Origin: Gammaproteobacteria bacterium
GTDB lineage: Bacteria > Pseudomonadota > Gammaproteobacteria > JBCCGL01
Length of the DNA: 64,000 bases
Reading direction: 5' to 3'
NCBI GenBank assembly: GCA_965277715.1
Contig: OZ255836.1
Coordinates: 1,152,001 to 1,216,000, forward strand
Within the stretch, counting starts at the first letter, position 1; every line of letters starts with the position of its first letter. A program made the translations under genes and the position numbers. Shown one piece after another: positions 1,258-54,932 of the stretch. The notes under the pieces were generated by a model. It was not told where the DNA came from, ran no database searches, and saw only the letters and a program-made list of their open reading frames with translations.

Positions 1258-1260
1258 TTT

Positions 1261-8005: not shown

Positions 8006-8024
8006 ACGACTTTTATTCTCTTAT

Positions 8025-8083
8025 GAGCATCAATGCTCGCATTCAATCATCATCAATTTGATGATGTCAATAGCTACTATTGA
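8025..8083. promoter_or_regulatory. Three adjacent palindromes in the divergent jetA/WYL intergenic region; candidate operator(s)
   Basis: GAGCAT-CA-ATGCTC (8025-8038), CATCATCAA-T-TTGATGATG (8048-8066), TCAATAG-CTA-CTATTGA (8067-8083). Confidence 0.55.
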
Positions 8084-8159
8084 TTCCCATGTGGTGCGCA
8101 ATATATGCTAGCAACCGAATTTGAGTATCATGGCACAAAAAAGGTTTGCAGAGCTTCTC

Positions 8160-9071: not shown

Positions 9072-9076
9072 AAACT

Positions 9077-13122: not shown

Positions 13123-13135
13123 GTAAAGGCCACCC

Positions 13136-15025: not shown

Positions 15026-15037
15026 GAGGAGCTGGAA

Positions 15038-18968: not shown

Positions 18969-19018
18969 TGAGCTGCTATGGAATTAGGCGATCAACCAAA
19001 GAGGACCTTGTGCGCTCA

Positions 19019-22000
19019 ATGAAGGTAAAAAATACTGCTATCACCTATACCGCATATGACTATCAAACTCTGCAGGGAGTAAAGCTTATTGCAGACTGGC
19101 TTCGCAGCCCCACCAAATATTCAAGGGTGGCATTTGAGGCAGACGAAGACACCAATGAAACACCTGCGGGTATTGACGATATCGTCGGTGAGCGACCGGA
19201 TGGCACTAAGGATTTCTGGCAGGTTAAATTTACCCCGTCGCCACACAAAGATGAAAACCGACTTTCTTGGGATTGGCTGTTAAGCGTCTCAGGTAAGACC
19301 GAAAGGTCTCGTTCAATTTTAAAAAAACTCTACGACGCAATTGTTTCAGTTCCGGCTGAAAATCTAGGTGATGTAGTTTTACTAACAAATAAGCTGCCCG
19401 ATAGAGACATAGAAGGATGCCTTTCTGGAGCAAAAGTCCTATTTGAAAAGATAGATAACGTCACAAAAAGCCTTATCGTAAACCAGCTAGGAAGCGACAA
19501 AGAGGCTGAATATCTTTTTTCAAGATTAACAGTTCAACACAGTGACGCTGATTACCACGTTACTAAGCGTTCAGTACAAGCTGGGTTTTTGAATTTTTCT
19601 GATGATGCAGGGGTCGAGCGGCTAATTTCACGATCCCGTGAATGGGCAATGTTCAAGGACAATCCTCCTGGCGATGGGTGGATTCATCTTCACCATATTA
19701 GAGAAATTTTGTCACCCAGGCGCCTTGAGCCAATTCCAGAAATTTTCTTTGTACCAGATGATTATTGCCTTCCTGATGTGGATTTTCACAACAGGATGAT
19801 CGAAAGGATAGGCGCCTCGAATGGAGAGGTGATCACCTTAACTGGAAAACCCGGAGGCGGGAAAAGCACCTACCTTTCCTTTCTATGCGAGGAATTAGAA
19901 CGCAGTGAAATTCCATTTGTCCGGCACCACTATTTTTTGTCTCTGGGGGATTCCACAACTGATCGCCTGAGCCCTAGGATTGTTGCCGAATCTTTACTTC
20001 ACCAAATTAGCAGCATCCACAAAGATGCTGGGGCAAATACAAGCCAACCAGAGAACCTTTCTGAAGCGATAAGGACATGCGCAAATTACTACAACGAAAA
20101 AGGCAAACCGTTCGTTGTGCTCATAGATGGGCTAGATCATGTTTGGCGCGATAACGCCAAAAATAAAAAACCTTTGGATGAAATATTCAAGCAACTTCTT
20201 CCAGCTAAAGACAGCCTAGTCGTTATCATTGGAACTCAGCCAGTAGATGACAATCTTTTACCTAACATTTTGCTTTCTAACTCACCAAAGCAAAATTGGT
20301 ATTGGCTACCAGAGATGTCGGGCAATTCCATTTATGAGTTTTTGGAGTTTCATGTAGAAGCTGGACGATTATATCTAAACTGCCATGAAAGCCATCGTAA
20401 CGAAGAGATTAAAAATGGCGCTAACGAGTTACTTCAGATAACTAATGGCTATCCTCTTCATGTAATTTACTCAACTGAGTATATTTCGAGTCACGGACTA
20501 GCTCTATCCCAATGGAACATTGAACGACTTCCGCCCTGCACAGACGGAAATATTGCAAACTACTACAACGAATTATGGCAATCCCTTAATTACAGACAAA
20601 AAGATGTTCTTCACCTTGCCTGCGGATTTAAATTCGCTTGGCCTAGACAAGCGATCAGCAAGGTAGTAAAAAACGATGAGCATGATAAAGCGCCAAGTGT
20701 CGATGCTGTTTCTCATTTGCTGTCTGAAACCATCTCTGGTGTTAGTCCCTTCCACGAAAGCCTTGTGGTATTTGTTACAAGTCTCATCGATCATCAAGAA
20801 CGAATAAAAGCGTTGATTCAAGATGTCTGTGATTGGCTTCAATCAGAAGCGCCAACTCACCTCAAAGACCAGTGGCTTTGGTCCTGTCAAGCCTTGGGGG
20901 GCAACACCGCTGAGCTGCGCCAAGGCATAACGCGCGACTGGGTGTTGGATAGATTAGTTGTAGGCATGCCCGTTAATGCATGCATACGATTATTATCAGA
21001 GGCAGAAGTTTATGCCTTCGGCGACCGAAACTATGCAGAGGCCTACCGGCACAGACAGCTAAAAACTAGACTAATCAACGGTCCCGAATTTCAAACTCGG
21101 GATTCTACTTCGCTTGAAGTGCTGTCTGCAGTTGGCGCCGCCCCACATGCTCTCAACGAGATTTTATCCAGGGTAAATGAATACGGCCCCCTAAAACTAT
21201 CAATACTGTCAATGGTGATGTGGTTTCGTGGGGAAATTGAAAAAGCCACCGAATTATCCAGAAAGGCAATTGATCGTTACCGAGCCAAAACGAAATTATT
21301 AGCCTCACGAAGTTCACAAGATGAAGAAAGCGAAGCTCTCAACATAGTAAAAGCTGGCACACTAACCGATAGCCTTAACTACGACGCCATATTTGATGAA
21401 GGCAACTTTGCTAAATGGCCAGATGGTTACATCACCAGCTTCAGATCCGCATGTCTTATCAAAAAGGATATAGATCTTCTGATGCGGGCTTGGAAATGCT
21501 TAGCTAGCAAATCGCCACACATTAGAAATATCGAGCTGGATGCTATTAGATTGAGTATTTTGGAAGACGCTGATATCTGCTGCTGGCCGGAGTACCAAAA
21601 CTTTTCTTCTCAAGAACTCAGTGGATTTTTAGGGGCATATTCTAAGGAAACACCAAGCGATATCCAGGCAGAGATTTTTGATAGTGAAAATCAGACGGCC
21701 TATAGAGTAGCAACTTCACAGAATTATCACACTTGGTTCTTCTCAGCATTGCAACTCAGAATTTGTGCTGAGGGAAATTTTAGCTGGCTACCTGTACGAG
21801 CGGAATCTGAAAGGGTAGACGTTTCAGATCACTATGATCTGCTAAACGAACTGGCAAATATTGTTGGGGTCGAGGTTCTGGCCGGAAACGCATTAACCTT
21901 CGATCTAATCTGCTCGCTGTTTCCAAACAATTCAAATCTTGATGACGCTCATTGGGAAAAGCGCAGAGCAGACATTTCATTTAAGAGAGAATGGATCGAA

Positions 22001-24790
22001 ATTGCTGCAGATTGCCACTTGTTAACATGCCAACGAAAAATATCGTCTGACGAGTTCGATAATGTTTTAAATTATGGCGTTTTTCGATCCGCCTGGCTCA
22101 GACTCTGGTACAAAGAGCTAAAGCTTGAACTGTTATCTGAAGGCGCAGCAAGACTGTTGATTGACCGAGAAATATTGCGCCAAGAAAGCGAGCTAGAGGA
22201 AACAATCGAAAACTCAAATGCGTACCTAGAACTTGCAGAAATAGCCTTTCAACACGATATTCAAGAATATTTCGAGAAATGCTTGAGGACCGCATGGGAC
22301 TTTGTTCTCGGATATGGACACCACAAAGACCCAACTATATTTGATGTTCTTAATGCAATTGAGTATCTATCAAAAAAAGACCCTAAATCTTCACTACAGA
22401 TATTGGAAAGAATTTCACCTATCGTGTTTAACATTTCCAAGTTTACAGATGGGGATGAAACTAGGCATTCCAAACACTCGATATCATCATTGGTGGCAAA
22501 GCTGAATCCTCAAACTGCCGCTTCAATATATGACCAAGAGCTTCGCGATGGCGAATGGTACTATGCAGAAAAGACCATTCAAAGACTATTTGAACGATCC
22601 GATTTATCATTAGCAATTGCTGGACAGCTGTTTCTGACCGGATTGCCATCTTCATGCTACGAGCCTATTAGAAAGCTGCATGAATCAGGGGATGCCAATG
22701 CCATAGATATCGCTTCAAATATTAAAAATTTACTAGACATCGACGTTCTCGATCAATCTAACGAAAACATAACAAAGTCAGATGAATTTGACGAAAAAAT
22801 CACATTAAGTTCGGCAGACTACCCTCCTGAATCCTTTGAGCAATTATCAGATGATTTGAAAGGAAAAATAAGCACTGGAAAATTTTGGAAGCGTTGGTAC
22901 CAATTCTGGCTAGAACAAGATAAAGAACCTGAGCTCATCCAATATTTGATGCCTCACACCCTGTCATTCGCAGAACGTTATGACGACAAACGATGTCTTT
23001 TGGATTTGCTATTTCGAAGCCAGAGAAAGATATCAGGAAAAACTAAGGCTTTTGATTTATTGGCGTTGGCACACAACGCGATGAATGGTTGGTCCAACTG
23101 GTTTGAAAGTTCTGAGAAAAGCATTGAAAGGCTTGATATTGTTGCAACTCAATACGCCAGCAAAATTGACGAATTCATTAGGCTGACAACTGAACAACCA
23201 GACACCTGGAAGGATAAATTTGGCAGCTTAATCATACCCAATGACAAGCTCGTATTTTTGCTTTCACAAGCAGGAAGGATAGATGAGGCGATAAAGCTAA
23301 CCATCGCCATGGTAGAAGGATTAGAGGACAGTGTCCGTAGTCTTAATTTGCCCAAGCCTAATTGGGATTGGGGAACTTCTGACACTCTCGATGACGCCTT
23401 GAGCAAACTGTTAATTTCAAGGCTAAAATGTCCTATCCCGTCAGTTAAACTATGGACTATCGAACAGATTTCTCGTCTTCTGAGCAGCCAGCAACCAAAA
23501 ATTGAGTCTTTGTTAGTGCAAGATTTGGCTGGCCGCAAACAAGAGTCTGAATGCGTAGAGGTGCTTTGCGTTTTTCATGTCGCGCAATCAAAAGGATATG
23601 CATGCCCTCAAGATCTTGGACGATATATCAAGGCAAGATCAACACTGTCTGACTTGCTTATAAAAAGCCTAACACAAAGCCCAAGTGAATTCGGTGAATA
23701 TGCATACCCATTTACACCAGACATTTGTCTCGGGGTTGATAACCATAGATTCAGCTACTTTCAAGGCAGCCACGTCCCGCGTCTATATTATTCATGGTTA
23801 AAGAAAGAAGAGAACCAAACTGGGATACCTTTCACAAGGTATTATGAGTTAGAGTGGTGTAATACTTTCGAATATTTGTCACCGGCTGAAGCACAGATTG
23901 ATTTTTTTCTTGGCAGCGACCGTCAACGCTCTACTGGCCAGTTTTACACACAAGCTAGCCATCGCGGGCGATCTGCTTATCTACGAACTATTGAGGTAGC
24001 AAAGCAATTCTATGGCATGCCAGAAACTTATGCTGAACACCTCTCGATACTTGCGCTGCCAATAGAGCCTGCATACACGGGGATAAAACCCAATAAACCC
24101 GCTTGGTTGCCAAAATGGGACAGCAATTGGAATGCAGATGTGGATGGCATAGCTCAGTTTATTAAGCTTGCTTTAGGCAATTTCGACTCAATCAAGGGCT
24201 CGCAATGCTTATTGGCTTTTTCACTACCAATCAAAATTGACGAAAACACGTGGATTGATGTGACAGTCGTAAAAGCTTCTGTTATCCAAAAATCCGGAGA
24301 GGATTTTGAAATAGAAGAACGCTCTGGATGTATTTCTATAGGAAATCTACTTGATCCAGAACTCACCTACGAGTTTCAAGATGACGATCAAATTCCAAGT
24401 GAGGTAATGGCCACTACACCATACCCATTCAACAGATATGGGCATTGGCATTCTGATATGGAGGCACGCGGTCTATACGTTCCAAAGAGCAATATTAAAG
24501 ACAAAAGAATTGTCGGCAAAGCTGTCGATGGTGCTTTCTGTTATTACCTTGGTGGATCAAATATAGGATTTTCCCTATTTTGGTTCTCTGGATGGCAGCC
24601 AAACCATCCTAAAGGTATTCGATCTCTCTGTGGCTCTTCGACAGTGATTTACAACAAAGGACTTGTTGACTGGTACAGGGCAAACGAATCATCAGTTAGC
24701 TTTGTATATGTATGTAAAGCCAAGGTTCTTTCATCGACAGATAGTTATCGTGACTTCGATGAGCAAGAACTGAGCTTCGTGATCACTTAA
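19019..24790 (+). CDS. Large nuclease-STAND NTPase (Avs/AVAST-like) antiphage protein
   Basis: N-terminal YDYQ...IDDI...FWQVK PD-(D/E)xK-like motif, Walker A GKPGGGKST, Walker B VLIDGLDH, GYPL, long helical C-terminus. ATG 19019 has an upstream GAGG. Confidence 0.75.
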   Translation: MKVKNTAITYTAYDYQTLQGVKLIADWLRSPTKYSRVAFEADEDTNETPAGIDDIVGERPDGTKDFWQVKFTPSPHKDENRLSWDWLLSVSGKTERSRSILKKLYDAIVSVPAENLGDVVLLTNKLPDRDIEGCLSGAKVLFEKIDNVTKSLIVNQLGSDKEAEYLFSRLTVQHSDADYHVTKRSVQAGFLNFSDDAGVERLISRSREWAMFKDNPPGDGWIHLHHIREILSPRRLEPIPEIFFVPDDYCLPDVDFHNRMIERIGASNGEVITLTGKPGGGKSTYLSFLCEELERSEIPFVRHHYFLSLGDSTTDRLSPRIVAESLLHQISSIHKDAGANTSQPENLSEAIRTCANYYNEKGKPFVVLIDGLDHVWRDNAKNKKPLDEIFKQLLPAKDSLVVIIGTQPVDDNLLPNILLSNSPKQNWYWLPEMSGNSIYEFLEFHVEAGRLYLNCHESHRNEEIKNGANELLQITNGYPLHVIYSTEYISSHGLALSQWNIERLPPCTDGNIANYYNELWQSLNYRQKDVLHLACGFKFAWPRQAISKVVKNDEHDKAPSVDAVSHLLSETISGVSPFHESLVVFVTSLIDHQERIKALIQDVCDWLQSEAPTHLKDQWLWSCQALGGNTAELRQGITRDWVLDRLVVGMPVNACIRLLSEAEVYAFGDRNYAEAYRHRQLKTRLINGPEFQTRDSTSLEVLSAVGAAPHALNEILSRVNEYGPLKLSILSMVMWFRGEIEKATELSRKAIDRYRAKTKLLASRSSQDEESEALNIVKAGTLTDSLNYDAIFDEGNFAKWPDGYITSFRSACLIKKDIDLLMRAWKCLASKSPHIRNIELDAIRLSILEDADICCWPEYQNFSSQELSGFLGAYSKETPSDIQAEIFDSENQTAYRVATSQNYHTWFFSALQLRICAEGNFSWLPVRAESERVDVSDHYDLLNELANIVGVEVLAGNALTFDLICSLFPNNSNLDDAHWEKRRADISFKREWIEIAADCHLLTCQRKISSDEFDNVLNYGVFRSAWLRLWYKELKLELLSEGAARLLIDREILRQESELEETIENSNAYLELAEIAFQHDIQEYFEKCLRTAWDFVLGYGHHKDPTIFDVLNAIEYLSKKDPKSSLQILERISPIVFNISKFTDGDETRHSKHSISSLVAKLNPQTAASIYDQELRDGEWYYAEKTIQRLFERSDLSLAIAGQLFLTGLPSSCYEPIRKLHESGDANAIDIASNIKNLLDIDVLDQSNENITKSDEFDEKITLSSADYPPESFEQLSDDLKGKISTGKFWKRWYQFWLEQDKEPELIQYLMPHTLSFAERYDDKRCLLDLLFRSQRKISGKTKAFDLLALAHNAMNGWSNWFESSEKSIERLDIVATQYASKIDEFIRLTTEQPDTWKDKFGSLIIPNDKLVFLLSQAGRIDEAIKLTIAMVEGLEDSVRSLNLPKPNWDWGTSDTLDDALSKLLISRLKCPIPSVKLWTIEQISRLLSSQQPKIESLLVQDLAGRKQESECVEVLCVFHVAQSKGYACPQDLGRYIKARSTLSDLLIKSLTQSPSEFGEYAYPFTPDICLGVDNHRFSYFQGSHVPRLYYSWLKKEENQTGIPFTRYYELEWCNTFEYLSPAEAQIDFFLGSDRQRSTGQFYTQASHRGRSAYLRTIEVAKQFYGMPETYAEHLSILALPIEPAYTGIKPNKPAWLPKWDSNWNADVDGIAQFIKLALGNFDSIKGSQCLLAFSLPIKIDENTWIDVTVVKASVIQKSGEDFEIEERSGCISIGNLLDPELTYEFQDDDQIPSEVMATTPYPFNRYGHWHSDMEARGLYVPKSNIKDKRIVGKAVDGAFCYYLGGSNIGFSLFWFSGWQPNHPKGIRSLCGSSTVIYNKGLVDWYRANESSVSFVYVCKAKVLSSTDSYRDFDEQELSFVIT

Positions 24791-25568: not shown

Positions 25569-26644
25569 CCTGCCATTCAGATCGCCAAAATAGTATCCGT
25601 TTAATCAAAGAGGCCGTTGTCGCTGGCGCTACATTAAGCAAAGCGTGCAAAGTGCTTGAGTGACACCCTAAGACGTACCGACGCTGGGCAAACGCGGGTA
25701 CTGTCCGTGCTGATGGCAGACCCAGCGCTCATCGACAGGCGCCTGGTAATAAGTTCACAGCAGAAGAGCGGGCATTGATTGTCACCACCTGTAATGAAGC
25801 GAACTACCAAGCGCTACCCCCCTCGCAAATTGTGCCCAAATTGGCGGATGAAGGTGTGTATATTGGGTCAGAGTCAAGCTTCTATCGGGTGTTAAAGTCG
25901 GAAAACCAACTGCAGCGGCAAGGTAAGGCGGCGGCGCCTAAAAAACGGCACAAACCTAACAGCTACCTGGCATCAAGGCCAAACGAGGTGTGGTCTTGGG
26001 ATATTACCTTTTTGAAATCGAACATAACAGGGTGGTTTTACCGGCTTTATATGATGATGGATATTTACAGTCGTAAAATTGTTGCCTGGGAAGTACATGA
26101 CAGTGAATCGGCTGATCTGGCAGCGGCGCTGATCCAGCGTGCCTGTTTAGCGCAGGGGTGCAGCCAAAGTCAATTGGTATTACACGCGGATAATGGTGGC
26201 CCGATGAAAGGTGCTACCATGTTAGCAAAACTGCAATGGTTGGGTGTGATACCTTCGTTTAGCAGGCCATCGGTAAGCGATGATAATCCTTATTCAGAAA
26301 GTCTGTTTAGAACCTTAAAATACACGCCTGCCTATCCGTCAAAGCCATTTGATAGTTTAGCCTCTGCGCGAAACTGGGTGCATGGATTTGTGCAATGGTA
26401 CAACGACTCTCATTGCCATAGCGGCATTGGGTTTGTGACACCAGCCTCGCGTCATAAAGGCGAAGACCACGCGATACTGGCAGCCAGAAAAGCAGTTTAT
26501 GAACAAGCAAAGGCCAAACACCCTGAACGCTGGAGTCAGGATATTAAACACCTCGAACCTGTATCGGGGGTGTGGTTAAACCCGGAAAAGGAAGGCTTGG
26601 CCATGAGACAAAAGCATAATGGAATTGAAAAGCAAGTAGCATAG
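25565..26644 (+). pseudogene. IS3-family DDE transposase OrfB, frameshifted near 25660
   Basis: WSWDIT, HADNG, DNPYSES motifs. The ATG 25565 frame stops at 25661-25663, while the homologous VTPKTYRRW continues in another frame. Confidence 0.8.
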
Positions 26645-27674: not shown

Positions 27675-28250
27675 TTATAAGGAAGTTAGTAGGCGTTTGA
27701 CACCTGCTATAAAAATATTGAAGCTGTGAGAACGGTTTTTGTTAATGTCCATATAGGGACCAATAGCTCTCGCTCCTCCTATTTTTTGATATTTTTTGTT
27801 CGTTATTTTTTCCAATTCTTCTTTGGCATTCCCCAACGCGTCAGGGTTGCGAAACTTTTTGTTGTTTTGTTGCTTGGACAGATTCTTAACATCAAGGCCT
27901 GACGCAACTGCTTGCAGGTCGCCTAGATACCAACTCTCCAATTCATGGCATGCTATACGAACTAGAAAGTAGGGTTTTCCCGCTTTTTTGCATTTGTCCA
28001 GCAGTTCACGTTTTATCAACTTGCAGTCCCCGCTATCCTGATCCCGCAAAATCACAAAGGCGGCATTAGGGTTCTGCCAGGCCCTTAATTTACCCAATAC
28101 CCTCTTTTCCAAGTCCTGTTTACCTTCAAAAGGTATACACAAAACTCGGATATCATCAGGAATGACTTGGGGCAACAAACCTGTCTCCAGCAGTACCTTG
28201 GCGCTCATTTCTTCCAAAAATACCACTAATTCGTCGATACCCTGGTTCAT
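27675..28250 (-). CDS. DUF4276/RloB-like (Toprim-like) protein
   Basis: FLEE, DQD, ELESWYLGD, SHSF motifs; overlaps the ATPase stop. Confidence 0.75.
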   Translation of the reverse strand: MNQGIDELVVFLEEMSAKVLLETGLLPQVIPDDIRVLCIPFEGKQDLEKRVLGKLRAWQNPNAAFVILRDQDSGDCKLIKRELLDKCKKAGKPYFLVRIACHELESWYLGDLQAVASGLDVKNLSKQQNNKKFRNPDALGNAKEELEKITNKKYQKIGGARAIGPYMDINKNRSHSFNIFIAGVKRLLTSL

Positions 28251-29437
28251 TTAGGGTCGGCCCCGTCAAACAACCCCTGCTTCCATAAATATCCCATCTG
28301 ATCGCCCTCTTCCATAAAAACCACCAATTGCTTGGATTCATTGGCGCGTTTAATCTGCGTTACACCTGCTTCTTTCACCAACCAGAATACTTCATCAATA
28401 GTGGCTGCGTTCAAGAAGTCGGGGGAATGGGTGGAAACAAAAACCTGCCCGCCTCGATTGGCATAATCACGAAACTCTTCAGCCAGTTCAGGTAACAAAT
28501 TTACGTAAAGTTGATTTTCCGGCTCTTCGATACAAAGAACCGGGTGGGGCTTGGGGTCGTAAAGCAAAACCAGATAGGCAAACATTTTTATGGTGCCATC
28601 TGAAACATAGCGATCAACAAAAGGGTCTTTAAAGGCGCCGTCCTGAAAACCAAGCAATAATCGCCCATCTTCAGTGCTTATGGTTTGTATATCCGTAACC
28701 CCTGGTACTCGATGTTTCATGGCCGTTTTAATTTTGGCAAAGATATCGCTATGGTTTTCATAAATGTTACGTGCAACCAGTTGTAGGTTATCGCCGGTAT
28801 CGGATAAATGATCTTCGTATCCGGTGGCATCCTTGGCACCGCGAGCGGCGTTAATATGAAAATCGGAAACGTGCCAATTTTCTATAAGCTGGCGAAAGGC
28901 ACTAGCGGCCTTAAAACGCGAAAACTGGCCCAAACCTTTAATAGCCAACACGTCCTCGGAGTCCAGTACCTGTTCCTCTCGGGCAAGTTCTTCGTCTGTT
29001 TTAGTGGAATCCTCTTCGTTGGTAATGGCATAACCTTTGCCGTTACTAAAATCAAGAAAGTGATACGGATGGCCATGCCTGCCGCGCTTATAGCGTAGCC
29101 TTTCTCTCTTAACATAAGCTTTTCCCAACTTTTGAGCCAACGTTAAGGAATAGGTTACCAGACGTTTTTTACCCGCGATTTGTATGCGGAACTGAATTTC
29201 AAAAAAAATTTCGTCATCTTCCGCTTCCCGGCTAAGCACCTCCTTAAAACCTCCACGGCGTTGAATCGCCGAGCGAACATTGTAGATAAGACAATCCTTG
29301 AGAAACCCAAAAACATCAAACAGTGTGGTCTTACCGGTTCCATTGGCGCCGACAATGACACACAGATTGGGAATGTCTGTCATTTTTATGTTACGCAGCA
29401 CCTTGTAGTTCTTAACGTGCAGAGTTTCTATACGCAT
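28247..29437 (-). CDS. ABC-type ATPase (AAA_21/AAA_15-like)
   Basis: GANGTGKT, SDGT signature, IEEPEN Walker B, STHS H-loop. Confidence 0.88.
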   Translation of the reverse strand: MRIETLHVKNYKVLRNIKMTDIPNLCVIVGANGTGKTTLFDVFGFLKDCLIYNVRSAIQRRGGFKEVLSREAEDDEIFFEIQFRIQIAGKKRLVTYSLTLAQKLGKAYVKRERLRYKRGRHGHPYHFLDFSNGKGYAITNEEDSTKTDEELAREEQVLDSEDVLAIKGLGQFSRFKAASAFRQLIENWHVSDFHINAARGAKDATGYEDHLSDTGDNLQLVARNIYENHSDIFAKIKTAMKHRVPGVTDIQTISTEDGRLLLGFQDGAFKDPFVDRYVSDGTIKMFAYLVLLYDPKPHPVLCIEEPENQLYVNLLPELAEEFRDYANRGGQVFVSTHSPDFLNAATIDEVFWLVKEAGVTQIKRANESKQLVVFMEEGDQMGYLWKQGLFDGADPK

Positions 29438-29569
29438 GTTGGAAATTTCCGGGTTCAACTTCTCTTAATTCTACACTAGTGTTCATTCGACACATCAACC
29501 AACAAATACCTTGGCCCCGCCCCTGATGTGGCAAAGTTCGATGGAATCAGACGTTACCCCAGCATTTTA

Positions 29570-29759: not shown

Positions 29760-31435
29760 GGTAGCGCAGCATGGATATGACTACGTTTATCGTCACGCAT
29801 GGAGCGCCCTGTCCAATCGAGGAGCTCCAAATAGTCGTCAAAGCGAAATAAGATCCCGCTTTGCGGTGCATTGGTTTCTGTACCCTCGAAGTGCAGCAGT
29901 GGTTTGATAGGTGTTTTAAATATGAATAGCTCGCCCGCTTTTTGCTGATCTTCAACCGCACGATTCGCGTTAAATTGGGGCGTGATGCGTTCACGGATAC
30001 TGGTGTATTCCGAGGTTTCGGGTGTTTCGGCGATATCCGCGCGTACTGGGTTAAGATCGACATAGGCCATGCAGGATAGTAGGGCTTCTTCGGTCTTTAA
30101 CGCCTGTGAGCAAAAGCGCGATTCCCAAAATCGCCCACGGCAACCGTCCTCTTGCGTTATCACCTCATCATCGCTTAGCGCATCAATCTGCTCAGGGCAG
30201 GCTTTCAGTACCAAATGGTAGTGATTACTCATCACTGCATAAGAGCAGATATCGATACCAAACAGAGAAGACAACAAGCGTATACGGTCTTCGACCCACT
30301 GGCGGCGTGATGTGGCTACACTAATTCGGACCCCTCACTTGAAGTAAACTGAGTTTACGCGAGGAACCGAAAATGAAAGAGAAGCAATCCTATACGGCTG
30401 ATTTTAGAGAGTCAGCGGTTAAATTAGTCCTGAAAAACGACCAGCCTATAGCCGCGACCGCACGCGAACTGGGAGTGAACGAGAATACTTTGCATACCTG
30501 GATCAGCAAGTATAGCCAACCGAAAGCGGATGGCAGTGGCCACAGCGATGAGCACTTATATGATGAACTCAAACGGCTGAAAAAAGAAAACGCGCGTTTG
30601 AAACCGGCGTTTAAAGCATTTGTTTGCCAATGAAGGGGTTCGTATCAGTCGCCGCCGAATAGGCCGTCTCATGGTACAAGCAGGGCTTTGTTGCCGTACC
30701 AAACGTAAGTTCAAAGTGACAACAGACTCCAAACACCATAACCCCATTGCGCCCAATCATCTGAATCGAGCCTTCACCATTGAACAACCTGACCGCTGTT
30801 ATGTTGGTGACATTACCTCCATCTGGACGCAACAGGACTGGCTTTACCTGGCCGTCGTGATTGACCTGTTCTCTCGTCAAATAGTGGGTTGGTCTATCCA
30901 ATCACACATGAGAACCAGTCTGGTGGATGACGCATTGCTGATGGCTATTTGGCGGCGTAAGCTCAAAGCTGGCCTGCTATGGCACACAGATCGTGGCTGC
31001 CAGTATGCCTCTAATCACCATCGCCGCTTACTAAAACAACACCATACTATTCAAAGTATGAGCCGCAAAGGCAATTGCTGGGATAACAGCGTGGCTGAAA
31101 GCTTTTTCCACACCTTGAAAACCGAATTAATTTACCTAAAAACCGGGTCAACCCGAGAGGAGGTCAGACAAGCTATTTTTGAATATATTGAAGTCTTTTA
31201 CAATCGCCAGCGATTACATTCCGCTAATGGCTATTTATCACCCGTGGATTATGAACTGTCTAAAAAGATCGCTTAAACATGTGTCCGATAATGTGTTGAC
31301 ACATCAGCGATGTGCGTAGCCCTTTTTCGTGTGGTCATCAACACCACACAAAAAAGCACGGCGTACACAGCGTGCGGTGATGTGGTAGTAGGGTGTGTCT
31401 TCGAACGAGATGAGTGCTTGTCCAGGGCGAGTTAT
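29654..31435 (-). pseudogene. REP-associated (RAYT-like) Y1/HUH transposase, interrupted by IS3 and decayed
   Basis: The N-terminus (ATA)TRP...PYYHITARCVRRAFLCG...HR at 31435-31307 joins RQWVEDRIRLLSSLFGIDIC across the IS. MSNHYHL HUH motif, GRFWESRF, YVDLNPVRA. Apparent internal deletion after DDEVI. Confidence 0.82.
30308..31306 (+). mobile_element. IS3-family element, internally deleted, 3-bp target duplication GCG
   Basis: IRL TGATGTGGCTACACTAATTCGGAC; IRR reverse complement TGATGTGTCAACACATTATCGGAC; GCG at 30305-30307 and 31307-31309. orfA (30373-30633) runs directly into a partial orfB (to 31276; GDIT, HTDRG, WDNSVAESFF). Confidence 0.9.
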
Positions 31436-47777: not shown

Positions 47778-48876
47778 CTATAAACCTGATTTCAAACTGG
47801 CTTCAATAAAGGGATCGAGCGCGCCATCGAGCACCGCCTGGGTATTGCCGGTCTCCACGCCGGTGCGCAAGTCTTTGATCCGTGCGGCATCGAGCACATA
47901 CGAGCGAATCTGGCTGCCCCAGCCAATATCTGACTTGCTCTCCTCCAGCGCCTGCTGATCGCCCATCTGCTTCATCTTCTCCATTTCATAAAGCCTGGAT
48001 TTGAGTTGCTTCATCGCCGTCGCTTTATTTTTGTGCTGGGACCGATCATTCTGACACTGCACCACAATACCGCTCGGGGCGTGGGTGATGCGCACCGCCG
48101 ATTCGGTGCGGTTGACGTGCTGCCCACCGGCACCACTGGCGCGGTAGACATCAATGCGCAAATCGGCGGGGTTAATGTCTATATCGATATTATCGTCGAC
48201 CTCTGGCGAGGCAAACACCGCCGCAAATGACGTGTGCCGCCGACTGCCCGAGTCAAAAGGGGATTTGCGCACCAGCCGGTGCACCCCCGTTTCAGTCCGC
48301 AGCCAACCAAAGGCATAGTCGCCGACATAGCGCACCGTGGCACTCTTAATACCCGCCACATCACCGGGGGATGCTTCGATAATCTCCGTTTTAAACCCAT
48401 GCTGCTCACCCCAGCGCAGGTACATCCGCAGCAGCATCTCCGCCCAATCCTGCGCCTCGGTGCCACCAGAGCCGGACTGAATATCCAGAAACGCATTACT
48501 GGCATCCTGCTCGCCGGAAAACATACGCTGAAACTCCAGCTCGACAACCCGCGCCTCGCACGCCGCGACATCCTCCGCCACCGAGGCCAGCGTCGCCTCA
48601 TCCTCTTCTTCACGGGCGAGTGCAATCAGCTCAAACCCATCATCCAGCCCTGTTGAAATCTCATCCAGCCCCTCGACCACCGTGGCCAACATCGCCCGTT
48701 CCCTGCCCAGCGCCTGGGCCTGCTCGGGGTTATTCCATATCGTTGGGTTTTCCAGCTCCCTCAATACCTCTTCGAGGCGCTCTTTGCGGCCAGCGTAGTC
48801 AAAGATACCCCCTAAGGGAGCCAACACGCGCCCGCAAGTCATCGATTTGATAGGTTAATGGGTTGGTTTCCAACAT
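47778..48876 (-). CDS. prfB: Peptide chain release factor 2 (programmed +1 frameshift)
   Basis: ATG 48876 MLETNP...; AGGGGG-TAT-CTT-TGA-C at 48813-48798; SPF and GGQ motifs. Confidence 0.96.
48798..48813 (-). promoter_or_regulatory. prfB autoregulatory frameshift cassette
   Basis: Internal SD AGGGGG, then TAT CTT TGA C. Confidence 0.95.
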
Positions 48877-48997: not shown

Positions 48998-49085
48998 ATT
49001 TCAATATTGCCACTGTATTTCCCTTTGGTGACGCGTCTGTATAGTGAAGCTTCAGCGCCTTTGAAACGCTAACGAGCGCCCGTAA

Positions 49086-51350
49086 TTAAGCCAACCTCCT
49101 AAGCCGCAAGTACCGACCAGTCGCTTCCCACTCAACATTTTCGGGATTCGCCCAAAAGCGTCGTGCTACAAACGCTGGTTGTGCACCGCCTTCATGGTGC
49201 ATATGCAATACTTCGGCGATGGCTGGGTCGGCGGGTAAACGCACCCCATCGACCCACTCACTGCGCAGCGCTTGCCCGTCACTGCGCCCCACCGTCATCG
49301 TTTCGCTACACCACCTCTCACCCTCTCCGGCGCGCACCTGCTCTATCACCACATCCGCCTGCGCACGGTGGTAAAACACCTGGCGGCGATTCGGTTCATC
49401 GGGAAAAAATTTTCCGCCGCCCGCCCACCCGCCCCACAACACCGAGCACCCTTGATCGGCGACCACTACATGGAATACCGGGTCATTAGTCGTCTCCCAG
49501 CTTAGCTCGCACTCCCCGGCCAGCGACCACACTTTCACCATCTTATCCAAACTCCCCGATACCACTCGACCATCGCCCAAGACCGCAACACTATTCACAC
49601 TAGACTCATGCCCGCTGAGCGTTAGCTCGCACGCCCCGCTAACCAGCGACCACACTTTCACCGTCTTATCCAAACTCCCCGATACCACTTGACTATCGCC
49701 CAAGACCGCAACACTATTCACACCAGACTCATGCCCGCTGAGCGTTAGCTCGCACGCCCCGCTAACCAGCGACCACACTTTCACCGTTCCATCATCACGC
49801 CCCGATACCACTCGACCATCGTCCAAGACCGCAACACTATTCACACCAGACTCATGCCCGCTGAGCGTTAGCTCGCACGCCCCGCTGGCCAGCGACCACA
49901 CCTTCACCGTTCCATCATCACTCCCCGATACCACTCGACCATCGACCAAGACCGCAACACTATTCACACCAGACTCATGCCCGCTGAGCGTTAGCTCGCA
50001 CGCCCCGCTGGCTAGCGACCACACTTTCACCGTCTTATCAACACTCCCCGATACCACTCGACCATCGCCCAAGACCGCAACACTATTCACACTAGACTCA
50101 TGCCCGCTGAGCGTTAGCTCACACGCCCTGCTGGCCAGCGACCACACTTTCACCGTCTTATCCAAACTCCCCGATACCACTCGACCATCGCCCAAGACCG
50201 CAACACTATTCACACCAGACTCATGCCCGCTGAGCGTTAGCTCGCACGCCCCGCTGGCCAGCGACCACACTTTCACCGTCTTATCATCACTCCCCGATAC
50301 CACTCGACCATCGCCCAAGACCGCAACACTTCTCACATAATCACTGTGCTCGCTGAGCGTTAGCTCGCACGCCCCGCTGGCCAGCGACCACACTTTCACC
50401 GTCTTATCATCACTCCCCGATACCACTCGACCATCGCCCAAGACCGCAACACTCATCACACCTCCACTATGCCCGCTGAGCGTTAGCTCGCACGCCCCAC
50501 TGGCCAGCGACCACACCTTCACCGTTCCATCAAAACTCCCTGATACCACTCGACCATCGCCCAAGACCCCAACACTCATCACACCTCCACTATGCCCGCT
50601 GAGCGTTAGCTCACACACCCCGCTGGCCAGCGACCACACTTTCACCGTCTTATCAACACTCCCCGATACCACTCGACCATCGCCCAAGACCCCAACACTT
50701 CTCACCCAATCAGTATGCCCGCTGAGCGTTAGCTCGCACGCCCCGCTGGCCAGCGACCACACTTTCACCGTCTTATCCAAACTCCCCGATACCACTCGAC
50801 CATCGCCCAAGACCGCGACACTCATCACACCTCCACTATGCCCGCTGAGCGTTAGCTCGCACGCCCCGCTGGCCAGCGACCACACCTTCACCGTTCCATC
50901 AGCACTCCCCGATACCACTCGACCATCGCCCAAGACCGCAACACTATTCACACTAGACTCATGCCCGCTGAGCGTTAGCTCGCACGCCCCGCTGGCCAGC
51001 GACCACACTTTCACCGTTCCATCATCACTCCCCGATACCACTCGACCATCGCCCAAGACCGCAACACTCTTCACATAATCACTGTGCCCATGTTCGTTAG
51101 GGTGCACTACGCCAGTATCCGCCGGGGTTTGGCCGATATTGCTGTGCAGTGTATCGGCGAATCGGGGGGGTAGCGCCGCATTGAGTGTGTCCGGCAGTTG
51201 CAAGCCACGAAGGTAAACATCGTTTAGCGCACCCTTTGGCAAAGTAATGCCCTCGCCACCAATATCCTGCCACTCGATAGGGCGTGGCAGTCGATAGGGC
51301 GGATTGAGTTTGCGGCATAGCAATGCTAGAGCCTGGCCGGTGTTAGTCAT
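49086..51350 (-). CDS. WD40-repeat protein with 13 near-identical repeats
   Basis: 41-aa GH...VW repeats. ATG 51350 is preceded by GGAGG and overlaps the KAP stop (ATGACTAA). Confidence 0.92.
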   Translation of the reverse strand: MTNTGQALALLCRKLNPPYRLPRPIEWQDIGGEGITLPKGALNDVYLRGLQLPDTLNAALPPRFADTLHSNIGQTPADTGVVHPNEHGHSDYVKSVAVLGDGRVVSGSDDGTVKVWSLASGACELTLSGHESSVNSVAVLGDGRVVSGSADGTVKVWSLASGACELTLSGHSGGVMSVAVLGDGRVVSGSLDKTVKVWSLASGACELTLSGHTDWVRSVGVLGDGRVVSGSVDKTVKVWSLASGVCELTLSGHSGGVMSVGVLGDGRVVSGSFDGTVKVWSLASGACELTLSGHSGGVMSVAVLGDGRVVSGSDDKTVKVWSLASGACELTLSEHSDYVRSVAVLGDGRVVSGSDDKTVKVWSLASGACELTLSGHESGVNSVAVLGDGRVVSGSLDKTVKVWSLASRACELTLSGHESSVNSVAVLGDGRVVSGSVDKTVKVWSLASGACELTLSGHESGVNSVAVLVDGRVVSGSDDGTVKVWSLASGACELTLSGHESGVNSVAVLDDGRVVSGRDDGTVKVWSLVSGACELTLSGHESGVNSVAVLGDSQVVSGSLDKTVKVWSLVSGACELTLSGHESSVNSVAVLGDGRVVSGSLDKMVKVWSLAGECELSWETTNDPVFHVVVADQGCSVLWGGWAGGGKFFPDEPNRRQVFYHRAQADVVIEQVRAGEGERWCSETMTVGRSDGQALRSEWVDGVRLPADPAIAEVLHMHHEGGAQPAFVARRFWANPENVEWEATGRYLRLRRLA
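49495..51089 (-). repeat. Coding tandem array, 13 x 123 bp
   Basis: CGCTGAGCGTTAGCTC recurs at 123-bp spacing. Confidence 0.95.
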
Positions 51351-53127
51351 GCGGGACCTCCTGTTTGGCAAGCTCGGCGATAACGTTCAGTTGCTTATAG
51401 AGGGTTTTAAACTGGTCAGCAGAGGTAACCTCTGCCATATGCGCCAGCCAGCTCAGGTCGGTGGCGCGGTCTTTGGCCTTATTAGCTGCCAACAGGGCTT
51501 TAAAACAGTTATCAGGTAGGCGGTTGTTGGCCAGCTTGTGCTCTTTGATAAAAGCACTGCGTGCAGCGGTGGTGGGATTGAGCAGCCCCTCCACGACCAC
51601 CAGCATGGGCACGTTTAACTTGGCGAGAGGTAGGTTACCGTCACTGGCCTCGGGGATATCAGTTTCTTGGTAGTTTGGGCTTTCGCTGATCTCGATTTCT
51701 GGTGAACGCTCTTGCAAATAAAGCTGGCGGAAAATTTCGGGGCTAACGCCGTGGTAAATATCGTAATCACTTTGTTCAGGAAGATCGGGAAAGATATCCT
51801 GCGGGTGCACGCCGTAGCGGTTGTTGATGCCCTGCCGGATCGCCGCTTGATAGCGCGGCAAAAACCGCCCACCGCGCCTGCTGGCCCCGCCGCCCTGGTT
51901 TAGCGCTGCCTTGATATCGCTGATATCCAGGGCGTTATTCTCGTCCAGTTCGGTGGATAACAGCCAGCCATACACCTTGGCTTCATTGCGCAGCAGCCGG
52001 TACAGGGCTGGGTAGAGTTGTTGCAAGATGGTGAGCCTGGCGACCAATAGTGTGCTGATATCCTGGCCGCCAAGCTGGCGCAGGCGGTCGACTTTAAGGC
52101 GCGTGCCTTCGACCGCACGGATCAGTTTGCGCGGCACGGGTGGCAGGGCATCGAGAAACAGATTTAGTAATGCCTCATCGGTTTGTTTCTCGGTTGACTG
52201 TTCGGGTTTCAGGGCCAGGTCTGTACGGTGTTTTTCATCCTGATTGGTCTGTTCGGTTAGTTTAACGTCTGTTAGAGAGAAAAAATCCTCAAACGTGTCG
52301 GTAAGGAATTTCTGTGCCGACTTCTTCGACCATAGCGGTAGATACACCGGCACATGGACGATCTTTTCCAGGTATTCGCTACCGCTGATCGGGGGCGCGA
52401 ACGCGTCCGGTTCCTCTGGCTTGCCATCATCACCCTGTGGGCGCGAGAACAGATAATCACGGTAGCGGTGGTTGATACCGCGCTCGACCACTTCTTCATC
52501 CACCGCCAGGACAAAACTAAAGTTTTTCAGGTTGAGGAACAGCTTGATGGACTCCAGCATTTCCACCGCCTTTTCCGGCAGGCAGCGATCGAGATCGTCG
52601 ATCAGTACGACAAAGCGCAGGGTCTCATCAAGCCCCAAGGTATCGAGTTGTTTGAAGGCACCGTAGTACAGTGAATCACATTGATTCGCTCGGGTATTCC
52701 GGGCTTTATCCAGCATCGACTTGCCGTTAACTTCTAACGCCGCCCCAGGTAGGCCAAACTTGAATTTGATACCGGCGGCTACGGCGATGGCGAAGTCTGC
52801 AAAGATCTTAGTCGACTTATTCAGTCCTTTCTTAATGGCTCTATAGGGAGGTTGGGTTGTTTTAACCACCTGCTCTATGGTTTTAAGCAGTGGAACTATC
52901 AGGTGTTCTTCTCTCTCATACCGCCAGGGGGAGAAAAACACCGGGATATAAAAGTAATCACCAGGCTTGGCGGATAAATCGCGAAAATAACCCTCAATAT
53001 TGCGCAGCGTGCGGGTTTTACCGACACCCCATTCGCCATACACCGACACCACCAACGCCTCACGGCTGGGCTGGTGCGGAAAGCTGGTTTCAATTAACCG
53101 GCAAATGCTGGTGTGGAAGTCTTCCAT
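51343..53127 (-). CDS. KAP-family P-loop NTPase
   Basis: GEWGVGKT, FSPWRY, IDDLDRC...IKLFL, YLEKIV, PRKLIR. Confidence 0.9.
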   Translation of the reverse strand: MEDFHTSICRLIETSFPHQPSREALVVSVYGEWGVGKTRTLRNIEGYFRDLSAKPGDYFYIPVFFSPWRYEREEHLIVPLLKTIEQVVKTTQPPYRAIKKGLNKSTKIFADFAIAVAAGIKFKFGLPGAALEVNGKSMLDKARNTRANQCDSLYYGAFKQLDTLGLDETLRFVVLIDDLDRCLPEKAVEMLESIKLFLNLKNFSFVLAVDEEVVERGINHRYRDYLFSRPQGDDGKPEEPDAFAPPISGSEYLEKIVHVPVYLPLWSKKSAQKFLTDTFEDFFSLTDVKLTEQTNQDEKHRTDLALKPEQSTEKQTDEALLNLFLDALPPVPRKLIRAVEGTRLKVDRLRQLGGQDISTLLVARLTILQQLYPALYRLLRNEAKVYGWLLSTELDENNALDISDIKAALNQGGGASRRGGRFLPRYQAAIRQGINNRYGVHPQDIFPDLPEQSDYDIYHGVSPEIFRQLYLQERSPEIEISESPNYQETDIPEASDGNLPLAKLNVPMLVVVEGLLNPTTAARSAFIKEHKLANNRLPDNCFKALLAANKAKDRATDLSWLAHMAEVTSADQFKTLYKQLNVIAELAKQEVPHD

Positions 53128-53801: not shown

Positions 53802-54932
53802 TTAAAAAAACAACACCACTTTAAACTCTTCTCCTATCTCCTCAAACTCAACACGCCGATTCAATTTCTCCACCTCCTGACACACCATCGGCAACCCCCG
53901 ACCAAGCTTATCCACATAGCGCATATTTTCCAAAAACTTCAAGATAATGGTATTGGTAGCATAAGACACACCGTATTTAAGTTTCTCTACAGTGACAGTA
54001 TTCGGTAGTCGACCAGGGGAAATAAACTCTATTCGATCATCAAACTGCAAAATCCGAACCCTGGAACCAGAAATACTATAATTCCTATGGGTTACCGCAT
54101 TGACAATAAGTTCTCGCAGCACCTTATCTGGATAAACAGCACCCAGAGCCGTCGTTTTAGCCCCGGAAATACGACTGGGTTGTTTTATATTGTGCTTTAT
54201 CACTGTCAGGGTTTTGTCGATTTGTTCGGGAAGCGCACCGTCAATAACCTGCTTATCTATCAACTCATCACTTACCTGATTACCCTGGTAGTGCGCATAA
54301 GAGATACAGGCATTCGGTAAATACCTTTGCGGATTGATACCAAAAATCAATAGCCCAGCCACCGTCGCTTTACCATCTTGCATTACATCCATATTACTCA
54401 ATAGGTTTTCTTTGTTTTCCTCTTCTGAAAACGTTCTCTGGTAAGGTAAAAAATACTTATCTAATGAATTAAAGTTAAAATCCGAAAGTTTAGTCCTCTC
54501 GACGAGCGTTGCATCGTAATGAAATACACCAGATTGTTGAAATAAGCGCATTAGTTCTTGTATTGAAGCGACGCGATTGGTTGCACCAACCCGGATCAGA
54601 TATTGGTTATTAAGCGTCTGGTAGGGTTTATCCAATCCTTTGGGCACATCGACAATGCCAACCTGTTTGCCCTGATAAGATTCCAGGCTTACTGCGCAAA
54701 TGACGGGGGGGACAATATTATTCCGGCTGATATTGGCTACCCAATCGACAAAATCTTTATCTCTACTTAAACCACTCACCTGACCGTCGTCAGCAACACC
54801 AATTAGAACAACTCCACCGCCAGCATTCGAAAATGCCACTATTTCTTTGGCAAGGCTTTCTGCCCGTACCTCTTCAGCCTTAAACTCGATGGCTTGGTTT
54901 TCGCCTTGCTCCAGCAAATCTTTCAATGACAT
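53802..54932 (-). CDS. Schlafen/AlbA_2 domain protein with HATPase_c_4 (RecG-C-like) domain
   Basis: ENQAIEFK, AFSNAGGGVVLIGVADDG, RELIVNAVTHRNY, SPGRLP, GRGL. Confidence 0.85.
   Translation of the reverse strand: MSLKDLLEQGENQAIEFKAEEVRAESLAKEIVAFSNAGGGVVLIGVADDGQVSGLSRDKDFVDWVANISRNNIVPPVICAVSLESYQGKQVGIVDVPKGLDKPYQTLNNQYLIRVGATNRVASIQELMRLFQQSGVFHYDATLVERTKLSDFNFNSLDKYFLPYQRTFSEEENKENLLSNMDVMQDGKATVAGLLIFGINPQRYLPNACISYAHYQGNQVSDELIDKQVIDGALPEQIDKTLTVIKHNIKQPSRISGAKTTALGAVYPDKVLRELIVNAVTHRNYSISGSRVRILQFDDRIEFISPGRLPNTVTVEKLKYGVSYATNTIILKFLENMRYVDKLGRGLPMVCQEVEKLNRRVEFEEIGEEFKVVLFF

Follow-up and report, generated by a model that had tools for sequence, protein, structure and literature searches.

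The window analysed here, a 64-kb stretch of a gammaproteobacterial genome (contig OZ255836.1 of assembly GCA_965277715.1, positions 1,152,001 to 1,216,000), carries on its minus strand a gene for a WD40 protein in which 13 tandem units of 41 residues are nearly identical to one another apart from six hypervariable codons. We consider it reasonably likely that this array is the ligand-sensing part of a two-gene, split NLR-like module, whose other half is a KAP-family P-loop NTPase encoded by the gene that directly precedes and overlaps that of the WD40 protein. The evidence behind this reading is the pattern of variation within the units, which indicates that two groups of variable codons (cassettes A and B) have been separated by recombination, together with a predicted complex of the two proteins and the recurrence of the KAP-WD40 pairing in relatives. 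An earlier, sequence-only reading of this DNA had picked out the array and its cassettes; its account of the array was sound, but the KAP NTPase partner gene had escaped it.

A WD40 array with a near-invariant scaffold and six hypervariable codons

Tandem Repeats Finder (TRF) reports a single array (window 49502..51075) with a period of 123, 12.8 copies and 91% matches, which in-frame reading resolves into 13 units (Table 1); unit 13 keeps the register only up to codon 32, and beyond it comes a degenerate 14th blade. The sequence-only reading had placed the array at 49495..51089, of which the upper end is right, whereas the lower edge lies at 49491; the strand is minus. Its transcription of the variable positions proved exact on re-reading: in order along the array, positions 3-7 (cassette A) read SDYVK, ESSVN, SGGVM, TDWVR, SGGVM, SGGVM, SDYVR, ESGVN, ESSVN, ESGVN, ESGVN, ESGVN and ESSVN, and positions 22-24 (cassette B) read DDG, ADG, LDK, VDK, FDG, DDK, DDK, LDK, VDK, DDG, DDG, LDK and LDK. 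Tabulated codon by codon, multi-nucleotide variation falls at codons 3, 4, 5, 7, 22 and 24. At the remaining 35 codons, 17 of the 105 nucleotide sites are variable among units 1 to 12, mostly as singletons, and the spacers are nearly invariant, with 42 nt separating cassette A from cassette B and 57 nt leading on to the next unit.

Mean nucleotide identity between units is 96.3% in the scaffold versus 51.7% at the six hypervariable codons. By Nei-Gojobori counting the scaffold shows a proportion of synonymous differences (pS) of 0.067-0.071, in keeping with the earlier claim that it is almost invariant even at synonymous sites, and a proportion of non-synonymous differences (pN) of 0.025-0.029. 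The comparison of non-synonymous with synonymous rates (dN/dS), which the sequence-only reading had proposed to make codon by codon as a check, gives by these counting methods a non-synonymous excess at the six codons (pN 0.51, set against the scaffold pS of 0.07). In a hand count of the steps needed along minimum-spanning connections, the ratio of non-synonymous to synonymous steps was at least 24:0 at the six codons and about 10:9 in the scaffold (Fisher's test on 24:0 versus 10:9, p=1.6e-4). The units show the low synonymous divergence that serves as a criterion for WD40 repeats of high internal conservation (HIC) or highly repetitive (HR) type, and their amino-acid identity (mean 85.6%, range 73-98%, for units 1 to 12, 492 aa) lies at the level that Dyrka 2014 asks of HIC repeats, namely at least about 85% over at least 100 aa. 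A 33-nt scaffold motif, allowing up to 3 mismatches, occurs 13 times in the window, always within the array, and was absent from 100 shuffles; this motif search found no copies of the unit elsewhere in the 64 kb.

Assortment of the two cassettes

Cassette A comes in 6 types and cassette B in 6 types, and the 13 units hold 11 distinct combinations of the two, compared with 11.4 +/- 0.9 expected at random. No association between A and B was detectable, either by mutual information (permutation p=0.52) or between three coarse A classes and the choice of G or K at codon 24 (p=1.0). The independent assortment that had been claimed for the cassettes thus agrees with a lack of detectable linkage in 13 units, at which number power is low and independence itself is not proven.

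The recombination tests suggested at the same time gave a clearer answer. In the four-gamete test none of the informative sites of codons 3-5 was compatible with the change of three nucleotides between GGA and AAG at codon 24. Of the 210 pairs of informative sites, 103 were incompatible, and a statistic of the pairwise homoplasy index (PHI) type came to 0.263, where permuting the order of sites gave 0.533 (p=0.0002). Three B alleles (DDG, LDK and VDK), up to 6 nt apart, each occur beside A cassettes of the ES.VN type as well as of the S/T type, and these A cassettes are at least 6 nt apart. Each residue state at the six codons is written with a single codon (Leu22 as TTG in 4/4, Gly24 as GGA in 5/5, Lys24 as AAG in 8/8), and copying is therefore favoured over convergence. 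Silent markers move together with their cassette, as judged from H2 CAC, present only in the two SDYV units, and from K27 AAG, present in 3 of 5 units with G24 and in none of 8 with K24. Taken together these sequence patterns indicate within-unit copying and recombination that separates cassette A from cassette B, by an exchange process that would be gene conversion and/or unequal crossover, the two being indistinguishable here.

Differences between units increase with their distance along the array (rho 0.30, p=0.018), adjacent units differing at 9.6 sites compared with 11.7 for all pairs (p=0.029), whereas scaffold differences show no effect of distance (rho 0.09, p=0.23). This combination is consistent with array-wide homogenisation overlaid by local duplication or unequal exchange. 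A diversity-generating retroelement (DGR) was considered as the source of the variation and rejected, since no reverse transcriptase (RVT) domain was found in the 32 open reading frames (ORFs) of the window that were scanned and the variable sites involve all four bases.

Location of the variable residues in the WD40 blade

An AlphaFold2 model of the WD40 protein, built on an alignment of 27 sequences, has a mean predicted local distance difference test (pLDDT) score of 70.4, with blocks of 84-94 in the WD region and values below 50 in the N-terminal 86 residues and beyond about residue 650. Secondary structure assigned by DSSP and averaged across the 13 units gives strand a at positions 6-11, strand b at 17-21, strand c at 25/26-30 and strand d at 35/36-41. 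This puts positions 3-5 in the d-a loop and position 7 second in strand a, with positions 22 and 24 on either side of the b-c turn's Asp. Two pairs of variable positions therefore enclose conserved residues in the same manner, 5 and 7 around V6 and 22 and 24 around D23, codons 3 and 4 varying in addition. On the opposite face, the loops a-b (12-16) and c-d (31-34) are nearly invariant, and variation is therefore limited to the loops of one face. In WD40 topology the d-a loop and the b-c turn make up the top face of the propeller, which would put all six variable positions there.

The sequence-only reading had likened the variable sites to those under positive selection in HET-E-type repeats. 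In Paoletti 2007 (PMC1805685) the positively selected codons of HET-E are 7/9 and 25/27, each pair flanking a conserved residue, and are located in the d-a loop and the b-c turn of the top face. Positions 5/7 and 22/24 of our units occupy the same elements of the AlphaFold2 model, and the likeness holds.

The best match of the WD40 protein in the PDB is 2ymu, described as a 'highly repetitive propeller structure' (2ymu_A, E 1.6e-118, Foldseek rank 1), followed in Foldseek by seven-bladed designer propellers with target-normalised template modelling scores of 0.82-0.84. Because of these seven-bladed matches and the degenerate 14th blade, the 13+1 modelled blades probably form two seven-bladed propellers.

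The KAP NTPase partner and a predicted complex

The protein encoded immediately upstream matches the KAP family profile PF07693 with 121.3 bits against a cut-off of 20 (E 6.2e-35) and has a Walker A motif, GEWGVGKT, at residue 31 and a Walker B motif, VVLIDDLD, at residue 173. Its PADLOC matches are QatA, PifA and PDC-S20 (E 1e-13 to 2e-22). An assignment as QatA was rejected, as NCBIfam NF041923 scored 95.1 bits against a cut-off of 600 and matched residues 169-275 only; among the neighbours scanned in the window there were no QueC or TatD-type domains. Between Walker A and Walker B the protein has one hydrophobic stretch, with lysines inside it and a maximum of 1.56 at residue 108 on the Kyte-Doolittle scale (19-residue windows). 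The title of a 2004 paper by Aravind reportedly speaks of transmembrane helices inserted in the KAP NTPase domain. When a plasmid collection was searched with the KAP protein, 173 records matched, all at less than 60% identity and none covering 80% of the query, so that these sequences give no sign of a plasmid-borne copy.

At the junction of the two genes the stop of one and the start of the other overlap (Table 1), an arrangement typical of translational coupling, and from this sequence context the KAP and WD40 proteins are probably co-translated. A model of the complex was made from the whole KAP protein and residues 1-130 of the WD40 partner, with our own alignments and 3 controls. Its score was 0.65 and that of the best of the 3 controls 0.00; solved complexes attain the mark for such scores in 116 of 157 cases and mismatched pairs in 2 of 215, a calibration that is rough only, since our own alignments were used. 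Between runs at least 34% of contacts agreed, and the pLDDT of the partner was at least 53. The predicted interface joins KAP residues 556-591 to residues 2-41 of the WD40 partner, and these segments hold residues that are invariant in the respective alignments, W560 and Q572 in KAP and L8 and L11 in the partner. The model supports, short of demonstrating, a binding in which the N-terminal helix of the WD40 protein docks on the C-terminal helices of the KAP protein.

Relatives of the KAP-WD40 pair and concerted evolution

A search with the KAP protein against 1.84 billion representative proteins returned 248 relatives at E<=1e-30. Among the 150 relatives listed, 21 are at least 1,100 aa long, and 19 of these were scanned for domains: 8 are KAP+WD40 fusions, 6 are KAP+FGE-sulfatase fusions, 2 have weak propeller matches and 3 show KAP only. 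A separate scan for KAP loci, with one genome per species and the window's own genome absent, yielded 80 loci with a best identity of 36%. Of the 12 loci with the best E-values, 7 (L001-L005, L009 and L011) have a WD40 gene immediately 3' of the KAP gene on the same strand, with junction overlaps of 8 nt in L001, 1 nt in L002, 4 nt in L003 and 8 nt in L004. The other five include L033, described below. Less than 700 nt remained downstream of the KAP gene in L006, L007 and L020, and in L008, where there was room, the hidden Markov model (HMM) of the unit gave no match, no further look being taken. The genes that flank the pair are different at each locus, and the pair therefore behaves as a self-contained module or insert.

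The arrays of the relatives are each built of their own scaffold, with units of 41 aa in L001, 45 in L003, 44 in L004, 41 in L005 and 45 in L009, and their internal nucleotide identity is 0.79-0.83 in L001, L003, L004 and L005 and 0.99 in L009. In the window, L001, L003 and L005 the peaks of entropy coincide with the six hypervariable codons; L004 shares five of these peaks, its position 3 being low. The L009 array (L009:8031-10499) comprises 14 units of 45 aa with 99% identical DNA, 9 of them identical in protein, and is either a very recent expansion or an artefact of its metagenome-assembled genome (MAG).

That units evolve in concert, as the sequence-only reading had supposed, is indicated by their grouping by locus. 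The 77 units of 7 arrays were placed in a maximum-likelihood tree, which rests on 45 columns and is weak in its inner structure. Locus labels change 6 times in it, the minimum possible, compared with a mean of 48.6 for shuffled labels. Six arrays are each confined to one side of a branch, the two units of L011 nest within those of L009, and all 13 units of the window group together with support of 96/88. The divergent units are terminal ones, namely the 14th of L004, the 14th of L009 and the window's own 14th blade, a placement to be expected if homogenisation acts on the interior of the array.

Searched at full length against a set of 5.8 billion proteins, the WD40 protein found best matches of 49-56% identity, and its residues 1-130 found single blades at about 70% and one 139-aa protein at 41%. 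Among the 120 best WD40 matches, a set chosen by similarity to a repetitive query and thus biased toward repetitive proteins, entropy at the six positions exceeded that of the scaffold in all 120 (median ratio 2.74) and internal identity was at least 0.70 in 38. Most of the 120 carry NACHT, NB-ARC or AAA_16 domains.

Some relatives have further parts that, from their sequences, are possible effectors absent from the window's copy. The WD40 partner in L001, a Gynuella MAG, ends in an N-acetylmuramidase domain (L001:9806-10825; PF11860, E 3e-26), and in L003 a third gene resembling JetD_C/DUF2399 follows the WD40 gene (L003:10594-11628). In L033, a Thiotrichaceae MAG, the place of the WD40 gene is taken by an FGE-sulfatase gene. 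Here the KAP relative (37% identity, L033:466-1713) is followed by the FGE-sulfatase, or C-type-lectin-like, gene (1435-3087) and a reverse transcriptase gene (3182-4225), and two copies of a 121-nt repeat (L033:80-200 and 2979-3099) differ only where the upstream copy has adenine. L033 is thus a DGR that diversifies a KAP-linked FGE-sulfatase sensor, with the adenine-confined differences by which such elements are recognised.

Features of the locus and its neighbourhood

Coordinates are collected in Table 1. The product of the WD40 gene consists of an N-terminal part of about 87 aa, the 13 units, the degenerate 14th blade and a C-terminal part of about 100 aa, and Pfam WD40 matches it in 13 stretches (E 6e-119). 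The longest ORF begins with TTG at 51371; the ATG at 51350 is nevertheless the likelier start judging from the sequence ahead of it, because AGGAGG (51362..51357) precedes it with a 6-nt spacer. An alignment of WD40 partners shows L8, L11, N16, P17, R48 and G49 to be invariant in the N-terminal region, in which the Pfam scan found no match. Nor did it find one in the C-terminal region, and a search of the 5.8-billion-protein set with residues 614-754 alone returned nothing at E<=1e-3 within proteins 414-1320 aa long; Atlas features of this region score 0.86 at most, belong mostly to WD40 clusters and are leads only. The PADLOC match of the WD40 protein to 'HEAT-ARM_XIII', which aligns to positions 141-278 of a 1972-position profile, was regarded as a match between repeats rather than as the assignment of a system. 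The coding strand is G-rich, and GC skew accordingly drops to -0.47 over the array (window 49000..51000), a much stronger skew than that of the neighbouring genes on this strand.

Table 1. Coordinates in the window of the KAP-WD40 pair, its parts and the adjoining Schlafen gene
Feature	Position	Strand	Basis or description
WD40 partner gene	49086..51350	minus	754 aa + stop; ORF list, Pfam WD40
N-terminal region of WD40 protein	51090..51350	minus	motifs AL.LL.RK.NP and YLRGL common to relatives
WD40 array, 13 x 123 nt (41 aa each)	49491..51089	minus	TRF and in-frame reading
Start S of unit k	S = 51089 - 123(k-1)	minus	
Cassette A of unit k (codons 3-7)	S-20..S-6	minus	
Cassette B of unit k (codons 22-24)	S-71..S-63	minus	
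Degenerate 14th blade and C-terminal region	49089..49490	minus	motif LPADP...W..EW common to relatives
8-nt overlap ATGACTAA	51343..51350	minus	WD40 start codon within last codons and stop of KAP gene
KAP-family P-loop NTPase gene, 594 aa	51343..53127	minus	Pfam PF07693, Walker motifs
Schlafen AlbA_2 + HATPase_c_4 gene	53802..54932	minus	Pfam; just upstream of KAP gene

The PADLOC matches of the Schlafen gene are to Argonaute-associated models. The GC content of its stretch is 0.40-0.43, compared with 0.55-0.59 for the KAP-WD40 pair, and AlbA_2 had no match among the neighbours scanned in L001-L004 and L009; its membership in the KAP-WD40 module is uncertain.

At the far end of the window (109..17527) there is a dense defence island with a pPIWI-associated nuclease domain protein, Wadjet and a WYL regulator. 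The Wadjet genes JetD/JetC/JetB/JetA lie at 1261..8005 on the minus strand, and the plus strand of 9077..17527 encodes an SNF2 helicase, a DUF4391 protein, a DNA methylase and a ResIII helicase. The stretch 18114..24790 holds a gene for an Mrr-type endonuclease, which also matches a 'NACHT-associated inactive restriction endonuclease', followed directly by that for a protein of 1,940 aa with weak NACHT, AAA_16 and NPHP3_N matches at residues 275-460 and a long C-terminal part with no Pfam match. Between the island and the housekeeping genes stands a cluster in which two integrase-core (rve) transposase genes bracket the gene of an AAA_21 (AbiEii-like) ATPase (25775..26644, 28247..29458 and 30620..31276). 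On the 3' side of the WD40 gene, the ORF listed for release factor 2 (47778..48842) has no usual N-terminus; the minus-strand CTTTGAC at 48798..48804, near the 5' end of this gene, is presumably the place of the programmed +1 frameshift of prfB.

Proposed mechanism and alternative explanations

In the reading that we favour, the 13+1 blades of the WD40 protein would present a variable face and be docked by the N-terminal helix to the C-terminal helices of KAP. Intragenic recombination, as gene conversion and/or unequal crossover, would keep the blades near-identical even at synonymous sites, with codons 3, 4, 5 and 7 (d-a loop and start of strand a) and 22 and 24 (b-c turn) remaining diverse and being re-assorted. 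The near-invariant stretches of 42 and 57 nt would provide homology for exchanges that break within a unit, and cassettes A and B would travel separately because the breaks fall there. The variable face would then bind a non-self ligand, for example a phage protein, and binding would switch the KAP NTPase to a defence or cell-death response; these last steps, from ligand to output, are what we infer. There are published precedents for several parts of such a scheme. KAP P-loop proteins with variable C-terminal regions protect against phage in a Walker B-dependent manner (PMC13552941), KAP ATPases can substitute for STAND NTPases in NLR-like conflict systems (PMC8195603), bacterial STAND proteins use WD40 propellers and FGE-sulfatase domains as sensors (PMC13581612), and KAP NTPases are named among the NTPases of DGR targets (Dore 2024, PMC10907252).

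Several points weigh against this reading. The pair adjoins prfB and lysS and is separated by about 25 kb from the large defence island, PADLOC has no model that covers it as a system, and the Pfam scan recognised no effector domain in the window's copy. The array is known from one assembly, its closest WD40 relatives being about 50% identical at full length and about 70% in single blades, and an assembler working with short k-mers could in principle have joined cassettes falsely across the 42-nt spacer. Cassette independence is drawn from n=13 units, with low power. The dN/dS figures are estimates obtained by counting, on paralogous units that recombine, rather than the output of a site model, and the six codons hold only about 3.4 synonymous sites, so that old divergence is inseparable from selection at them. 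The placement of the variable positions on the top face comes from model secondary structure and known WD40 topology, not from coordinates. Finally, the partner of the second-closest KAP relative (L002:7947-10214) matches Pfam WD40 at E 2e-60 and gives just 1 weak match to the unit HMM; its blades are unlike each other, so that high repeat identity, though common in the family, is not obligatory.

The same variation might have arisen with no ongoing shuffling, if one unit had recently been amplified and its variable codons had then changed by selected point mutation. The low scaffold pS, the greater likeness of neighbouring units and the codon-22 alleles, which form a chain of single steps (GCT-GAT-GTT-TTT-TTG), would all suit such a young array, and Hu 2017 (PMC5587647) takes high internal identity as a sign of recent duplication. 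We nevertheless hold this to be quite improbable. The multi-nucleotide B alleles DDG, LDK and VDK stand on both A backgrounds, and the use of one codon per residue state makes parallel mutation implausible. Complete relatives, moreover, all have 13-14 blades, each with its own scaffold and unit length (41, 44 or 45 aa), for which independent amplification to the same number would be needed repeatedly; and the divergent units are terminal, as predicted by homogenisation of the interior. Much the same low likelihood attaches, in our estimate, to an assembly artefact, in which the number and order of the units or the pairing of A with B would be chimeric, assembled from short reads of 123-nt repeats that are about 96% identical. 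Short-read assemblies of highly conserved NLR WD40 arrays are unreliable (PMC12222747), neither the 42-nt spacer nor the 57 nt to the next unit is bridged by short k-mers, and the 99% identical units of the L009 MAG may reflect collapse or over-expansion. The window's reading frame is, however, intact across 2.26 kb, the 13+1 blades agree with the 13-14 of the relatives, scaffold variants are common to adjacent units (A10G in units 4-5, A32V in units 11-12), and silent markers are linked to their own cassettes. The pattern of variable sites across loci, for its part, is independent of the window's assembly, although unit order is still unproven.

A further alternative accepts the shuffled array as real and places it in a non-immune setting, the KAP-WD40 pair being a regulatory or scaffold complex that has, for example, several endogenous partners. 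WD40 propellers are general interaction platforms, the pair sits between housekeeping genes, with prfB and lysS on one side and metabolic genes on the other, its relatives too have ordinary neighbours, and an effector domain is lacking in the window's copy. Against this, the flanks change from locus to locus as those of a self-contained insert would, the KAP family includes tested antiphage proteins, relatives carry the muramidase or JetD_C-like addition, a DGR hypermutates the sensor of the cousin L033, most of the nearest WD40 sequences belong to NACHT, NB-ARC or AAA_16 proteins, and a low-GC Schlafen/AlbA_2 gene adjoins the pair. On balance we find a non-immune role unlikely.

The split sensor-switch module could also be taken a step further, to an anticipatory receptor in which recombination re-deals the top-face cassettes often enough for many variants to exist within a clonal population. 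We would not expect this to be the case, with odds no better than those of the non-immune role. If true, recombination would do here what hypermutation by a DGR does elsewhere in this KAP family (L033), prokaryotes would have a parallel to repertoire building of the HET-E and VLR type, and the N-terminal helix of the sensor would serve to plug interchangeable sensors into one NTPase switch.

Comparison with known systems

A close functional analogy is with the NACHT-WD40 proteins HET-E, HET-D and NWD of Podospora anserina (PMC1805685, PMC4986451). Here as there the units are about 85% identical, the d-a loop and the b-c turn each hold a hypervariable codon pair around a conserved residue, evolution is concerted with exchange of repeats, and the repeats number at least 10, beyond the need of one propeller. 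The differences are those of a bacterial host, to which repeat-induced point mutation (RIP) is not applicable, of a 41-aa rather than a 42-aa unit, and of an NTPase that is KAP (PF07693) instead of NACHT and is encoded by a separate, overlapping gene, the WD40 protein itself having no NTPase domain. The bacterial protein has no HET or other N-terminal effector, and no gene family with the same unit is visible in the 64-kb window. The WD40 gene accordingly works like the HET-E family but is no member of the NACHT-WD proteins.

Highly repetitive bacterial WD40 arrays with variable hotspots are already known and have been attributed to young duplication. The prokaryotic set of Hu 2017 (PMC5587647) and the structure 2ymu share with our array the high internal identity, low synonymous divergence, many blades and diversity at hotspots; Hu 2017 invokes nothing beyond recent duplication and does not mention KAP NTPases, whereas our units show within-unit recombination and cluster by locus. 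Diversification by reshuffling has been demonstrated in fungi but for bacteria no more than suggested, Dyrka 2020 (bioRxiv 10.1101/2020.01.06.895854) remarking of bacterial NLRs with highly conserved WD and TPR repeats that they 'might similarly' diversify. The locus described here offers a compact bacterial case, with breakpoints inside the unit, orthologous arrays evolving in concert, KAP in the place of STAND, and a separate sensor with a predicted docking helix.

On the side of the switch, the pair resembles the KAP antiphage proteins (EF_KAP and others, PMC13552941; PifA; QatA) in having a Walker A/B NTPase with a variable C-terminal module. Those proteins are single chains with C-terminal regions of unknown fold, whereas here the module is a separate WD40 protein. 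Bacterial STAND or NLR-like WD40 proteins (Apaf-1-like, PMC13581612) likewise use a WD40 propeller as the sensor of an NTPase switch, unlike our pair in that the NTPase is not KAP and the chain is not split in two; that paper makes no mention of KAP. Our literature search, whose scope did not extend to the 2004 KAP paper or to bioRxiv supplements, found no work linking KAP NTPases with WD40 partners. As a system of two genes and 4 kb, the pair is small and testable against phages.

The C-type-lectin/FGE-sulfatase sensors diversified by DGRs (Dore 2024, PMC10907252; Kaur 2020, PMC7159879) are a last point of comparison, as they also join an NTPase switch to a sensor that is kept diverse. In DGR sensors this is the work of a reverse transcriptase and of adenine-directed mutagenesis of one variable region, in contrast to the recombination among 13 units seen here. 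The occurrence of both arrangements next to KAP NTPases suggests a pressure on KAP-coupled sensors to vary, which bacteria would answer by two molecular routes, recombination and DGRs.

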